From the sequence record OZ335960.1: a stretch of 64,000 bases of DNA; one strand, given 5' to 3'. The position numbers were made by a program, and so were the translations under genes. This DNA comes from a phage. This document shows positions 3,781-47,118 of the stretch, piece by piece. Numbering within the stretch: the stretch's first letter is position 1; each line of letters starts with the position of its first letter. The notes under the pieces were generated by a model. The model ran no database searches. It was not told the DNA's origin and worked only from the letters and a program-made list of their open reading frames with translations.

Positions 3781-4089
3781 TTATTTACCAATAAATTGAA
3801 GCAAATGCTCAACTTTCATACCATTAACGGAAATCAATTTGTCAATAGAAAAACCTCGCCATGCACCGAGTTCAACATCAAATACTGGAATCATATCAGT
3901 AGATTCTTTCCGAGCAGATTCAGTCAATTTACCAGTTTGCATGGTTGGCATAAAGTCTGCATCGCGAGTACCTTTCATAGTACGAATAGTACCATCAGAC
4001 TTTTCAAAAACTACATTTGAAATACCCATGGACAATTTAGTTTTCAAAATTTCACGAATTGCTACTTTTTGTTCAGTCGTCAGTTTCAT
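3781..4089 (-). CDS. hypothetical protein (31.1 position)
   Basis: ORF track 102 aa. Confidence 0.5.
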   Translation of the reverse strand: MKLTTEQKVAIREILKTKLSMGISNVVFEKSDGTIRTMKGTRDADFMPTMQTGKLTESARKESTDMIPVFDVELGAWRGFSIDKLISVNGMKVEHLLQFIGK

Positions 4090-41722: not shown

Positions 41723-43540
41723 CTACTGGCTCATCCATTCTTTACGAAGGTCAGCATTATCTCCCATGAGCATTTCAAAAAGCTCTTTCCAGTTCTCAGG
41801 AAGTTTAACAACATCATATACCGGGTTTTGAATCATCTCACGATATTCAGATTTTTCCAAAGAGCCAAGTCCCTTAATATAACGGATGCTATGTTTAGGT
41901 AGAGCATCTTTGGCACTCTCATATTCAGCGACTGTATAAAACCATTCTTGTTTTTTACCGACCTGGGCGATGATTACAGGAGTTTTGACGAAACGAATTC
42001 TTCCTTGTTCAAACAGTTCTGGCCAATTACTAAAAAATCCGAGCAGAGAAGGATAAATGCTTCCTAGACCATCGTGGTCAGCATCGGTCATAATAGCAAT
42101 ATTATGATAATTCAAGTTTTCAGCTTTTTCACCAAGAACTAATCCAGTGATTGCGCAAATATCAAATAGTTCTTTGTTTTTAAGCATATCAGCATATGAC
42201 ATACCCCAGCTATTAAGAACTTTACCACGCAATGGATAACCACCATGAAGTTCTTTATCACGAACATCAATAAGATATCCGATAGCAGAATCACCCTCAG
42301 TCAAGAAAAGAGTAGTATCAGCATCTTTACCGCAAAGATTCGCTTTAATGTGTTTATGAACCTTAGCTTTAGAAGCCTTTTTAGCTGCTTTAGTTTCTGC
42401 TGCCTTTTCTGCCGCCAATTTACGAGCCAAGGCAGCTTCAATAATTGGCATTAAAATTGCTTCATTATTTAAAATAGCACGTGAAATCTTTTTAGCATCA
42501 AGCTGAATATGACTACGAATTTCACCAAATGGAGAAGTCAAACGCTCTTTAGTCTGAGAATCAAATCGCATGTTTTTCATATCACGAACAAACATAACGA
42601 TAGTCAAACATTCTTTAACCCGTGCTTTAGTTACATCAATTTTAAACTTGCGTTTGATTTGTGGAATAAGGTCTTCACAAATATCATCCATAACGCAGTC
42701 AATGTGATGGCCACCATTCTTAGTATGAATGTTATTGACGTATGTTAATTGACGAAAACCATCCGGTGAACGACCGACTGCAATAGAACAGTTTTCCTGT
42801 TCTTGAACGATAGCATGCTCATCATATTGGCGTGCATATTTCTTAAAATTACCCTGAACCTTTTTACCATTAAAGGTAAATTGAATATCAGGATAAACTA
42901 CTGCAAGTGTCTGGAGACGATCCAGTGTAATGTCAAGATAAACTTGAGATAGCTCATTAGTTTCAAATGACATAAAATCAGGAATGAAAGTAACACGAGT
43001 TCCTTTCCATTTTCCAGGAATAGTTTCCCATGATTTATTTTCCATGCCATTTGAACAACGAACTACAATATTATTTTGACCGTCGCCAGTTTCACCGACA
43101 AACATCACAGAAAAAATGTTAGTTAAACTAGAACCAACACCGTTCATACCGCCAGTGACGCGTTCTTTATCATCACCAAAGTTACCACCTGCTTTTGGAA
43201 TAGTCCATGCAGCAACAGGACCAGGAATTTCTTCACCAGTAGGTGTTTTAACCATCGCTTGCGGAATACCACGACCGTTATCTTCAACTGTTACTTGATT
43301 GTTTTTGATAGTAACATTAATTTTATTCGCGAATTTAAACTTAGTACGAATACCTTCATCTACTGAGTTATCGATAATTTCATCAATAAGCTTAACAAGA
43401 CCAGGTACATACTGAACACTTTCCCATTTACCAAACAGAAAGCGCTCATGCATTTCATTAGCAGAAGAACCAATGTACATGCCGCTACGCTTTTTGATAT
43501 GTTCAATATCGCTCAGAATTTTAATTTCATTCTTAATCAT
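41723..43540 (-). CDS. 39: DNA topoisomerase II large subunit gp39, unsplit (covers T4 genes 39 and 60)
   Basis: Track ORF starts at GTG; ATG 43540 with GAGGA RBS gives 605 aa; GHKL ATPase N-terminus, TOPRIM C-terminus; the C-terminal 120 aa match recalled T4 gp60 without the bypass segment. Confidence 0.9.
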   Translation of the reverse strand: MIKNEIKILSDIEHIKKRSGMYIGSSANEMHERFLFGKWESVQYVPGLVKLIDEIIDNSVDEGIRTKFKFANKINVTIKNNQVTVEDNGRGIPQAMVKTPTGEEIPGPVAAWTIPKAGGNFGDDKERVTGGMNGVGSSLTNIFSVMFVGETGDGQNNIVVRCSNGMENKSWETIPGKWKGTRVTFIPDFMSFETNELSQVYLDITLDRLQTLAVVYPDIQFTFNGKKVQGNFKKYARQYDEHAIVQEQENCSIAVGRSPDGFRQLTYVNNIHTKNGGHHIDCVMDDICEDLIPQIKRKFKIDVTKARVKECLTIVMFVRDMKNMRFDSQTKERLTSPFGEIRSHIQLDAKKISRAILNNEAILMPIIEAALARKLAAEKAAETKAAKKASKAKVHKHIKANLCGKDADTTLFLTEGDSAIGYLIDVRDKELHGGYPLRGKVLNSWGMSYADMLKNKELFDICAITGLVLGEKAENLNYHNIAIMTDADHDGLGSIYPSLLGFFSNWPELFEQGRIRFVKTPVIIAQVGKKQEWFYTVAEYESAKDALPKHSIRYIKGLGSLEKSEYREMIQNPVYDVVKLPENWKELFEMLMGDNADLRKEWMSQ

Positions 43541-43609
43541 CACTTATCCTCGTTTGGTTTCGGGAATATTATACTCCGGTAATCATAAAGCTAAAGGCCC
43601 GAAGGCCTT

Positions 43610-43882
43610 TTATTTAAAACGGATAGTCGAATCCTTGAAGAATAGACCAGAACATACGGTTCCTTCTACTTTCTGCCCGGTAGGTCCAATAGCACGAAAT
43701 CCAGTATGTTGGAAATCATTTTCAGAGCAACCGAACCAATTGTATCCAGTGATTTCAATATTAGTAAAACCGCTTGAAGACAAAACTTTGGTTGCATTAT
43801 CAGCATCAGTACATCCTGCTAAAGACACTGCTAATACTAATGCCGCGATAGAACGATTAACATATTTCATAATTTCACTCAA
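43610..43882 (-). CDS. putative lipoprotein
   Basis: ORF track 90 aa; signal peptide with lipobox (LAGCTD); start may be the internal ATG 43870. Confidence 0.5.
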   Translation of the reverse strand: MSEIMKYVNRSIAALVLAVSLAGCTDADNATKVLSSSGFTNIEITGYNWFGCSENDFQHTGFRAIGPTGQKVEGTVCSGLFFKDSTIRFK

Positions 43883-44246
43883 ATTTAATGGCTTGAAGGA
43901 GACTAATAATTCTTAAACGGCTTCTTTCATCTTTAACCGTAAAAGAAAGAGGGTCGCCAGATTTCATAGTGATAGTGCATTCAAAACTAAAATCTTCAGG
44001 AACTTCTTCGAAGAAGTCAAATTCTTCATCATATATTAGAACATTACTCTGAAAACTGTGAAGAATTTTTCCGTCATTTCCAGATGCTGTACTAATCATT
44101 GTAACATTATTACCTTTCATATCTTCAACGATAAATTCGCTTGTAGATATTACGGCATTAATAGAACCATTCCTATAAATAGAAGAAAGCAGATATTTCT
44201 TTTCTTCACCTTCACGAATGCGATATTTCTTACCGATTTTAAACAT
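43875..44246 (-). CDS. hypothetical protein
   Basis: Track ORF (GTG at 44252) trimmed to ATG 44246. Confidence 0.45.
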   Translation of the reverse strand: MFKIGKKYRIREGEEKKYLLSSIYRNGSINAVISTSEFIVEDMKGNNVTMISTASGNDGKILHSFQSNVLIYDEEFDFFEEVPEDFSFECTITMKSGDPLSFTVKDERSRLRIISLLQAIKFE

Positions 44247-44248
44247 AA

Positions 44249-44425
44249 TCACCCTTTAAGTAAGTCATAAAATCCGCCATTCACATGCTTAGGAGCAGAA
44301 GGCCGACGAGTAGACAGACGATGGCATTTAGGGCAAACATCATTTTCTCGTTCAGAAATCTTTTTAATTTTTTCGTATTCATGCCCGCAATCTTCGGATT
44401 GGCATTTATAATCATACATTGGCAT
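44249..44425 (-). CDS. FmdB-like zinc-ribbon protein (below track cutoff)
   Basis: Hand translation MPMYDYKCQSEDCGHEYEKIKKISERENDVCPKCHRL... 58 aa; CxxxxC and CxxC pairs. Confidence 0.4.
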   Translation of the reverse strand: MPMYDYKCQSEDCGHEYEKIKKISERENDVCPKCHRLSTRRPSAPKHVNGGFYDLLKG

Positions 44426-45357: not shown

Positions 45358-45442
45358 ATTGTTTTCTGTATCAGTAGTTGATATTGATATAGTACCATAA
45401 TCAACTACTGATGTATATAGTTTTATGAAAAAATTTTAAACT

Positions 45443-45940
45443 TTATGCACAGCGGGCTTTGCTATAGTGTTTAATCCAACTTTCTGGAATGACTTTGTAT
45501 GTTCCTAAAAATACCGCGTTGTACAACTTAACGCCATCTTCTACCCACTGATCGGTAATGTATGCACACATAGCGCGAGTACGGTGTTTTTGAACAACCC
45601 CTTCCTCATCTTCAGTAAATTCGAATTCATAAGGAGCAACGAACTTAATAGCTTGACCGAGTTTCCACTTAAAGTCTACGCCTACATGCGAAGTATCAAT
45701 CGTTTCAATTCCTTTAGCAGGAACAGCTTTCAAAAACGCAGACTCAATAAATTTCGCACGAACATAGCCAAACTGAGGTTTAGATTTTCCATCTTTAGGA
45801 ATGATACGCACTTTTACTTCAGAATCTTCATCTTTAACACCGTGTTTAAGCTGAATGCTTACAATTTCAACCAATTTTCCTGCTGCTTTAGAACGGGATT
45901 TATCAGATACACGAGCAATTTCACCAATATTAATAATCAT
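45443..45940 (-). CDS. hypothetical protein, paralog A (motB-region)
   Basis: ORF track 165 aa; C-terminal motif C.YITDQWVEDGVKLYNAV shared with the 46017-46559 ORF. Confidence 0.5.
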   Translation of the reverse strand: MIINIGEIARVSDKSRSKAAGKLVEIVSIQLKHGVKDEDSEVKVRIIPKDGKSKPQFGYVRAKFIESAFLKAVPAKGIETIDTSHVGVDFKWKLGQAIKFVAPYEFEFTEDEEGVVQKHRTRAMCAYITDQWVEDGVKLYNAVFLGTYKVIPESWIKHYSKARCA

Positions 45941-46016
45941 AGTTATCTCTCACTTGTTAAAAAGATTTTATACTCCACGGGACCATTATACTCTGGTCCC
46001 AAGAGTTTGTAAACTA

Positions 46017-46559
46017 TTAATTCAAAATAGCTACCACTGCACTACGAGGTACTACGCTAAAATCGCCTGCATGAACCACGTTCAGAAGTTCAACACCATC
46101 TTCAATCCACTGGTCTGTTACCCAACCACAGACCGAAACAAATGGAGTCTTAATAGCTACTGCACGAGTCAAAAGGTCAGTAGGATCGCATTCTTGGAAG
46201 AGGATAAGCTCTGCTTCAAAGACTATAGTTTTAATTACTTCATCATTATCTAAGCGTTGTGCTCGAATCACATAAGCTTTATTCTTATCATACCAATTAC
46301 TTTTTGAAAAACTTTTAACCACAAACTCGCCTTCACCAAAAACACTAGTCAATGCTTTATAACCCAAACTTAGTTCAGTAGTTTTAATTTCGGTTTCAAC
46401 CAGTTTGTAGGTTTTGCCAATTTCGATGGTCCGAGCAGTCATAAAGGTTTCCTTAATTTCCAGTGGTTTAACAGGGCATACATAAGTGCTTAAAACATCA
46501 AAATCAATCAATTTAGCTACCGGATTTGGTGTGTATTCAGGATTATAATTAAATTTCAT
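46017..46559 (-). CDS. hypothetical protein, paralog B
   Basis: ORF track 180 aa; C-terminal motif CGWVTDQWIEDGVELLNVV. Confidence 0.5.
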   Translation of the reverse strand: MKFNYNPEYTPNPVAKLIDFDVLSTYVCPVKPLEIKETFMTARTIEIGKTYKLVETEIKTTELSLGYKALTSVFGEGEFVVKSFSKSNWYDKNKAYVIRAQRLDNDEVIKTIVFEAELILFQECDPTDLLTRAVAIKTPFVSVCGWVTDQWIEDGVELLNVVHAGDFSVVPRSAVVAILN

Positions 46560-47062
46560 AATTGTCTCATTTCAATAAAATCTACAAGTTCAGCATGGGA
46601 TTTACGGAACATTACTTGGTGTCCGCCAATGATAACTTCATCTTCAGGAACTTCGTATATAGCGAGATAAAATCCTTTAGAAGATAATTCTTCACGCTCT
46701 TCTCGTGTGAACCATCTCATCATATCATATTCGCTAGCGAAAGCAAAATGATAAAGAGCTATAAACCATCCTGGAATATGATATTCTACTCCAACATAAT
46801 CTTTCTTGAACTTAGTATTAATTACTATATTAGCGTTTTTAACTAATAGTTTATCTTCATGTGGTACAGGAATTCTTTTATTATCATCACTATGATGCAT
46901 AAAATTAGGTCTGCTATAACCTACCCGTAATAGCCACTCTTCGCTCCATGAATCTATTATACTCCTGTATGGCGTTATTTGAACACAAAGATTTCGACGT
47001 ATTGTTATAGCATCTTCATAATCAAGAATACTAAACGATGATTCAACACGATAAATTTTCAT
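46556..47062 (-). CDS. hypothetical protein
   Basis: Track ORF (TTG at 47101) trimmed to ATG 47062 with GAGGA RBS, placing it downstream of the early promoter at 47090-47118. Confidence 0.45.
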   Translation of the reverse strand: MKIYRVESSFSILDYEDAITIRRNLCVQITPYRSIIDSWSEEWLLRVGYSRPNFMHHSDDNKRIPVPHEDKLLVKNANIVINTKFKKDYVGVEYHIPGWFIALYHFAFASEYDMMRWFTREEREELSSKGFYLAIYEVPEDEVIIGGHQVMFRKSHAELVDFIEMRQL

Positions 47063-47089
47063 TTTATTATCCTCAGTAGCTATGGTGTT

Positions 47090-47118
47090 ATAATACCACA
47101 ACTAACCGAGGAAGTAAA
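47090..47118 (-). promoter_or_regulatory. T4-type early promoter
   Basis: Minus strand GTTTACT, 17 nt, TATTAT directly downstream of the dexA stop. Confidence 0.5.

Follow-up and report, generated by a model that had tools for sequence, protein, structure and literature searches.

The window (the whole stretch of 64,000 nucleotides that was analysed) comes from a Tequatrovirus, a T4-like phage, and the 4.4 kb surrounding the gene pair considered here matches 742 phage records by DNA (top identity 97.5%), the best matches among those listed being to Tequatrovirus and related T-even phages. The region is transcribed from the minus strand, on which the gene order reads 39 (606 aa, the fused 60+39 form), 39.1, a 125-aa GoF/Frd.2-like ORF without a counterpart in T4, a zinc ribbon gene, goF, cef, an unnamed 93-aa ORF, motB, motB.1, motB.2 and dexA, with dda lying further upstream beyond dexA. 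This is syntenic with the T4 order 39-goF-cef-motB-motB.1-motB.2-dexA, and the flanks are about 95% identical in nucleotide sequence. The original prediction had placed two adjacent ORFs of 165 and 180 aa between 39 and dexA, and the ORF list, the family matches and the synteny with T4 all bear this out: the two genes are motB (ORF1, 45443..45940 including the stop codon, 165 aa) and motB.1 (ORF2, 46017..46559, 180 aa), both on the minus strand. Next to them on the same strand lies motB.2 (46556..47101; phrog_1106, E 5.6e-57, with synteny to T4), which is not a paralogue of the pair and whose stop codon overlaps the motB.1 start codon by 4 nt (ATGA); the ORF finder gives it 181 aa from a TTG codon, its homologues, by annotation, starting at the ATG of MKIYRVE and having about 166 aa. 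Two plus-strand ORFs (45584-46012, 142 aa, and 45855-46253, 132 aa) were discounted as antisense artefacts because the minus-strand genes match families strongly and the GC skew is negative throughout the region. A consensus scan of the region for intrinsic terminators found none. Upstream of motB lies a 76-nt gap that has the same sequence in T4 (100% identity) and contains, on the minus strand, a putative sigma-70 early-type promoter (45985..46013; TTTACA, 17-nt spacer, TATAAT) that agrees with the consensus at 11 of 12 positions and is the top-scoring site in the region, so that on the strength of its sequence this element may function as a promoter. A GGGACC/GGUCCC hairpin spans the −10 element, and folding the gap as RNA gives a z score of −4.2.

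ORF1 was identified as MotB by its match to Pfam family PF17613 (E 1.9e-98; 327.4 bits, the cut-off being 25; profile positions 1-160 of 162 aligned) and to phrog_1671 (E 4e-76). The gene is about 95% identical to T4 motB in nucleotide sequence, and the protein is about 88% identical to its closest cluster of 162-aa proteins. T4 MotB is an abundant early protein that coats DNA, alters H-NS footprints, lifts repression from part of the H-NS regulon and increases burst size about twofold (PMC6070864, PMC7827196); it is toxic to Escherichia coli and copurifies with H-NS and StpA (PMC6070864, PMC7827196), and its DNA binding is tight and sequence-non-specific (PMC7827196). By orthology ORF1 would be expected to have the same DNA-binding and H-NS-related activity as its T4 counterpart. 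In the AF2 model (mean pLDDT 78.8, about 90 in the C-terminal domain) MotB is predicted to consist of a basic KOW-like barrel (residues 1-68), a disordered linker (69-86) and a C-terminal beta-barrel (87-165), the last of these with an extra long hairpin (FKWKLG...) modelled ahead of the block that it shares with MotB.1. The assignment of the N-terminal domain to KOW was made previously with HHpred (PMC7827196); in ORF1 Pfam gave no match to KOW at E <= 0.1, and Foldseek retrieved KOW6-KOW7 of DSIF at E 0.04. The protein has a pI of 9.1 and its net positive charge is located in the N-terminal barrel, and this contrast in charge suggests that it is there that MotB binds DNA.

ORF2 matches phrog_2333 over its full length (E 9.6e-80). 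It scores 34.3 bits against the Pfam motB profile (cut-off 25) but only through residues 142-175, which align with profile positions 120-153; it fails to match PF17613 as a whole, so that it has the C-terminal core in common with MotB but not the architecture as a whole. A MotB.1-type C-terminal domain, an N-terminal domain that is not that of MotB and a position directly upstream of motB identify it as MotB.1; some GenBank records already label it 'motB-like protein' or 'transcriptional regulator'. At least 80% of this 180-aa allele is carried by 356 phage records, T6 among them. The original prediction had described both genes as being of unknown function, which is wrong for ORF1, the characterised DNA-binding protein MotB; MotB.1 too has been the subject of study, is dispensable and is not known to have a phenotype. 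Deletion of motB.1 leaves burst size and latent period unchanged, and an RNA reporter assay shows no effect of the protein (PMC12152347).

The AF2 model of MotB.1 (mean pLDDT 75.4) predicts three parts, a disordered extension (residues 1-41), an LSm-like/SH3-like barrel with an inserted helix (42-124) and a five-stranded barrel (125-180). The protein has a pI of 4.9 and its C-terminal domain a pI of 4.3. The N-terminal barrel (46188..46436, minus strand) is modelled with strands E50-53, E79-86, E95-102, E108-114 and E121-123 and a helix at 61-74. The 125-aa GoF-like ORF of the window is similar to it (BLASTP E 4e-4) and matches phrog_2333 weakly, and alignment of the domain with GoF/Frd.2 by hhalign gave an E value of 1.2e-4 with a probability of only 55%. 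That the N-terminal domain of MotB.1, GoF and Frd.2 form a single LSm-like fold family has been reported (Kim et al. 2025, PMC12152347). The MotB.1-type C-terminal domain (46020..46187, minus strand, residues 125-180, DPTDLLTRAVAIKTPFVSVCGWVTDQWIEDGVELLNVVHAGDFSVVPRSAVVAILN) is modelled at a pLDDT of about 90 with strands E133-137, E142-153, E156-163 and E166-171, a 3-10 turn and E175-179, and has a mean pairwise identity of 0.91 within the 180-aa family. Within the disordered extension lies a conserved linear motif, DFDVLSTYVCPVKPL (46461..46505, minus strand, residues 19-33), of the pattern D.D[VI]..xY....P[LI], at which the pLDDT is below 50. In the family this motif recurs only alongside a DPTDLL-type, that is MotB.1-type, C-terminal domain, and it does so in two positions, either ahead of the LSm-like barrel or immediately ahead of the C-terminal domain.

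The starting observation was that the two proteins have a C-terminal block in common and differ in their N-terminal regions; the peptides quoted in support of it, CAYITDQWVEDGVKLYNAVFLGTYKVIP and CGWVTDQWIEDGVELLNVVHAGDFSVVP, are both present, and pairwise and profile alignments show the similarity to be highly significant. BLASTP between the two ORFs aligned 32 residues (16 identical, 24 positive, E 5e-11); a Smith-Waterman score of 105 compares with 29.9 ± 4.9 for 5000 shuffled sequences, none of which reached it (z 15.4, Gumbel p about 1e-9); and hhalign of the two family alignments paired MotB.1 residues 141-177 with MotB residues 122-158 at E 1.7e-15 and gave no other match. The N-terminal regions do differ, as had been claimed, there being no detectable similarity between those of MotB and MotB.1 (a Smith-Waterman score of 28, where shuffled sequences average 26.6). 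The block is about 35 residues long, with the consensus TDQW[IV]EDGV.L.N.V..G.[FY].V[IV]P.S, and the two copies of its core motif in these genes are the only ones in the window. In MotB it occupies residues 122-165 (45446..45577, minus strand, AMCAYITDQWVEDGVKLYNAVFLGTYKVIPESWIKHYSKARCA), the last four strands of the model (E115-134, E137-144, E147-152 and E156-159), and according to the models it would in general make up the closing three or four strands of the C-terminal barrel. No other segment of either family is as conserved (mean pairwise identity 0.93 for MotB.1 and 0.75 for MotB), and within each family the N-terminal regions are more variable than the C-terminal domains. A profile of the block searched against 1.84 billion representative sequences found only 34 proteins, about 26 of which are small members of the MotB/MotB.1 family; matches longer than 500 aa were weak and broken into many stretches, and were taken as noise.

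We consider it very probable that three elements jointly explain these data: the identity of the pair as motB and motB.1, an architecture of two barrels in each protein, and duplication accompanied by exchange of the N-terminal domain. Going by the models, both proteins would comprise a variable small N-terminal beta-barrel, a flexible linker and a conserved SH3/Tudor-like C-terminal barrel, and thus both are predicted to be two SH3-like barrels in tandem. Foldseek searches of the PDB with either model retrieved the tandem Tudor domains of 53BP1 and UHRF1 and KOW6-KOW7 of DSIF, and the MotB.1 model additionally retrieved the SH3-like tandem of KIN. It should be noted that the E values were marginal (1.5e-3 to 5e-2) and the rmsd was high, the latter being due to the flexible linkage of the two barrels. 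As neither full-length model gave a PDB structure match at E <= 1e-3, the assignment of the fold is based on matches that are consistent but marginal; a sequence-profile search of solved structures gave nothing at E <= 1.

An alternative concerns the nature of the shared domain. HHpred had previously placed it among the cold-shock-type OB-folds, its closest match being eIF5A, and it was proposed as a possible DNA-binding domain of MotB (PMC7827196). Were the block an OB-fold nucleic-acid-binding module, both proteins would use it to bind DNA or RNA, and their N-terminal barrels would only modulate the binding. In keeping with this, conservation is highest in the block in both families, and eIF5A models are weak Foldseek matches in BFVD (E about 0.02). 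Two features nevertheless point towards an SH3/Tudor-like barrel rather than an OB-fold: in the predicted topology a 3-10 turn separates strand 4 from strand 5, and the PDB matches of both full-length models are headed by Tudor, KOW and SH3-like tandem modules. The MotB.1 block is, moreover, acidic (pI 4.1-4.3), D, E and D are among its invariant residues, and the positive charge of MotB lies in the other barrel; we regard the OB-fold explanation as unlikely. The invariant acidic and aromatic residues (D, W, E and D), together with the net negative charge in MotB.1, lead us to favour protein contact or self-association over DNA binding as the probable role of the C-terminal barrel.

A more specific proposal can be made along these lines, although we hold it only tentatively and think it unlikely. 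The shared barrel would be a Tudor/SH3-like interaction or dimerization module through which MotB and MotB.1 either share a partner or pair with one another, and the disordered motif would be its ligand. The KOW-like barrel of MotB would then bind DNA and the LSm-like barrel of MotB.1 possibly RNA, with the motif peptide KLIDFDVLSTYVCPVKPLEIKE as the candidate ligand of the MotB.1 C-terminal domain. If this were true the locus would amount to a set of barrel modules that are shuffled among its proteins and follow a defined code of interactions. In the two-barrel reading that we prefer, MotB.1 would probably retain the function of the shared barrel while its own N-terminal barrel directs the protein to a different ligand.

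The origin of the pair was addressed by comparison with T4 and with the other proteins found by the block profile. It has been described previously that T4 MotB and MotB.1 have a conserved C-terminal domain in common and different N-terminal domains (Patterson-West et al. 2021, PMC7827196), and the same study proposed duplication of one of the genes as the source of the other and sorted 102 phage homologues into four categories (PMC7827196), of which Categories 2-4 correspond to MotB.1; the 180-aa allele would fall into Category 2 or Category 4. In its Fig. S1 the consensus line includes MKFNYNPEYTPNPVAKLIDFDV...IEIGKTYKLVE, which is the N-terminus of the 180-aa allele (PMC7827196). When the window was compared with T4 DNA, motB.2, the motB.1 C-terminal domain from DPTDLL onwards, the intergenic promoter region and motB were about 95-100% identical, whereas the segment encoding the MotB.1 N-terminal domain was not homologous in DNA, homology resuming exactly at the DPTDLL codons; at the level of sequence, this difference between the two phages is a cassette replacement. 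The small relatives found by the block profile combine their domains in several ways: a KOW-like barrel is joined to a MotB-type or to a MotB.1-type C-terminal domain, one or two LSm-like barrels are joined to a MotB.1-type C-terminal domain, and an extra N-terminal domain also occurs. In the Klebsiella phage PhiKpNIH-6 (Marfavirus) a single 126-aa gene, encoding a KOW-like barrel and a MotB.1-type C-terminal domain, occupies the syntenic slot between dexA and cef, and this one outgroup locus suggests that a single copy with that architecture is ancestral. We infer the following order of events. One ancestral gene would have joined a KOW-like barrel to the C-terminal domain; this KOW-barrel gene would have been duplicated; and the N-terminal barrel of one copy would then have been exchanged by recombination with neighbouring GoF-like paralogues. 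If the barrel was replaced by recombination then the difference between the N-terminal domains reflects domain swapping rather than gradual divergence, which is how we are inclined to read it, and the MotB/MotB.1 family is a clear, small case of domain shuffling in phage early proteins.

The original prediction had instead envisaged duplication followed by diversification of a target-recognition part, as in anti-defence or exclusion families. The duplication stands as likely, the genes being tandem paralogues, but the N-terminal regions are not diverged copies of one another: they are different domains, a basic KOW-like barrel in one protein and an acidic LSm-like barrel, probably of the GoF/Frd.2 family, in the other, with the latter cassette swapped relative to T4. 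In its full form the earlier scheme would require duplication of a whole gene and then rapid divergence of the N-terminal target-recognition region under diversifying selection. The tandem arrangement with a common C-terminal block would be expected from it, as would the greater variability of the N-terminal regions in each family; the genes also lie in a dispensable early region with many host-takeover genes, and MotB counters H-NS-dependent repression, this effect on H-NS silencing being the nearest thing to an anti-defence role that we can point to. Set against these, the N-terminal domains retain no residual similarity and probably belong to separate KOW-like and GoF/Frd.2 LSm-like families, that of MotB.1 changes by cassette replacement with sharp boundaries, and KOW barrels are found paired with either type of C-terminal domain. 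Searches with motB, motB.1 and motB.2 gave no match in PADLOC, which counts for little as PADLOC models defence rather than anti-defence proteins, and none in NCBIfam. Likewise, no anti-defence phenotype appears in the published MotB and MotB.1 studies cited here; another paper that mentions MotB together with anti-defence lies outside that scope. The anti-defence or exclusion-like role thus has no direct support, and we consider divergence of this kind distinctly improbable. Lastly, that the block, which is admittedly short, is alike by chance or low complexity with no common ancestry behind it is virtually impossible in view of the shuffling, BLASTP and hhalign statistics, the Pfam score of ORF2 above the curated cut-off and the narrow set of proteins that the block profile finds.

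One observation made in the course of the T4 comparison concerns the reference record itself. In AF158101.6 (= NC_000866.4), alone among the T4 records, the TDQWI codons are followed directly by an additional G; those resequenced T4 genomes that gave a match lack this base and are shorter by one nucleotide. As a result of the extra base MotB.1 is truncated in NC_000866.4 to 119 aa, without most of the shared block and C-terminal domain, whereas MT984581 annotates a 143-aa MotB.1 with the full domain. The published MotB.1 constructs were designed from NC_000866.4 and make the 119-aa product (PMC12152347). As such a construct is without most of the C-terminal domain, the negative results obtained with it may not carry over to MotB.1 in its 143-aa or 180-aa form.

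The gene pair, its shared C-terminal domain and the idea of duplication were already published in 2021 (PMC7827196), and the LSm-like nature of MotB.1 is also on record (PMC12152347), so the finding itself is a known one. What is added here, as prediction, comprises the two-barrel models, the Tudor/SH3-like character of the shared barrel, domain swapping and the motif linked to MotB.1, together with the extra G in T4. These carry little weight as a discovery; as side results they should be modestly useful for work on T4 early genes.

With regard to known systems, the closest is T4 MotB (Pfam PF17613; Patterson-West et al. 2018, 2021), of which ORF1 is the orthologue, with the same synteny and an identical promoter region; a small indel affecting the first hairpin of the C-terminal domain gives the protein of the window three more residues (165 aa) than that of T4 (162 aa). 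T4 MotB.1 (P39415, '13.8 kDa protein in the motB-dexA intergenic region') occupies the same locus as ORF2, between motB.2 and motB, has the same C-terminal domain from DPTDLL onwards, with nearly identical DNA, and is predicted to have a fold that is alike overall (Foldseek match of the ORF2 model to that of P39415, E 2.4e-6, TM 0.59). It differs in its N-terminal cassette and in length (143 aa as against 180 aa), and the 180-aa allele, unlike the T4 protein, carries the 41-residue disordered extension with the D.D[VI]...Y motif. The GoF/Frd.2 LSm-like family of the Tevenvirinae aligns with residues 43-123 of ORF2, for which a small beta-barrel is likewise predicted, but GoF and Frd.2 are without a MotB-type C-terminal domain and, as the hhalign probability indicates, their sequence link to ORF2 is weak. 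The tandem Tudor, KOW and SH3-like modules of 53BP1, UHRF1, Spt5 (KOW6-7) and KIN are the best structural matches, each presenting two SH3-fold barrels in series as predicted for MotB and MotB.1, but they have no sequence relationship to the phage proteins, the likeness being one of fold only and not of family membership.

Over the N-terminal domain of MotB.1, the product of the 180-aa allele of motB.1 (46017–46559, minus strand), the DNA of the window (46188–46559, minus strand) has no homology to that of T4 (about 3870–4151 in L003, the reference stretch NC_000866.4 3500–11000). The two phages are about 95–100% identical in motB.2, in the C-terminal domain from DPTDLL on, in the intergenic region and in motB. 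On this alignment the N-terminal segment is a cassette replacement with sharp boundaries. The window carries three LSm-like paralogs within 3 kb, namely the MotB.1 N-terminal domain, goF and a 125-aa member of the GoF/Frd.2-like family (43875–44252, minus strand; phrog_622, E 3.7e-30, with Pfam FRD2 under its cut-off). This last ORF sits between 39.1 and the zinc-ribbon gene, a position at which T4 has no gene.

A segment of MotB.1 that is predicted to be disordered also contains a short, conserved linear motif, D.D[VI]..xY....P[LI] (DFDVLSTYVCPVKPL in the window, 46461–46505, minus strand). Within the family the motif is found only alongside a C-terminal domain of the MotB.1 (DPTDLL) type, in some members N-terminal to the LSm-like barrel and in others immediately before the C-terminal domain; it is not mentioned in the portions consulted of the two MotB.1 papers (Patterson-West 2021, PMC7827196; Kim et al. 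2025, PMC12152347).

The T4 reference MotB.1 is 119 aa long and ends in ...GGWVTDQWIGRWR* (L003, about 3792–3870, minus strand). Its gene has one additional G (GGATTGGAAGATGG as against GGATT-GAAGATGG; window counterpart 46095–46115), 3′ of which EDGVELLNVVHAGEYSVVPRSAVVAILN remains encoded in another frame. Among the T4-type records compared the extra G is limited to AF158101.6 and NC_000866.4, at least 11 further records (T4, T4T, RB55 and RB59) being 1 base shorter at this site, and in MT984581 MotB.1 is annotated as 143 aa. The extra G is likely to be a sequencing error in the reference or a mutation confined to a particular stock. The reference coordinates were the ones used in published work on MotB.1. 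A 43-aa protein of the representative library, P0258 (MKIYRVESSFSILDYEDGVELLNVVHAGDFSVVPRSAVVAILN), looks like the result of a deletion that joined the N-terminal end of motB.2 with the last part of the MotB.1 C-terminal domain; the join is at an ...ED codon pair common to both parts. The 29-aa ‘Category 3’ peptide of RB69 (Patterson-West 2021) may be an analogous case.

The stop and start codons of motB.2 and motB.1, respectively, share a 4-nt overlap (ATGA, 46556–46559), which suggests that these genes are translationally coupled. Unlike motB.1, motB (45443–45940, minus strand) is preceded by a 76-nt gap (45941–46016, minus strand) containing its own putative early-type promoter (TTTACA, 17-nt spacer, TATAAT). 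The −10 element of this promoter is enclosed by the loop of a GGGACC/GGUCCC hairpin (z −4.2), and the gap is 100% conserved in T4. In the stretch between motB and a 93-aa ORF (45358–45442, minus strand), an inverted repeat with perfectly matching 13-bp arms, AUCAGUAGUUGAU...AUCAACUACUGAU, forms a strong hairpin (−23 kcal/mol, z −4.3; none of 200 shuffles folded equally well). Its sequence is identical in T4, and it is a candidate processing site, terminator or promoter-associated element.

The topoisomerase II large subunit is encoded by one 606-aa ORF (41723–43543, minus strand) in the fused 60+39 form. The split specific to T4 is missing, as are mobA and gene 60, in keeping with an organization like that of T2/T6 and not that of T4.
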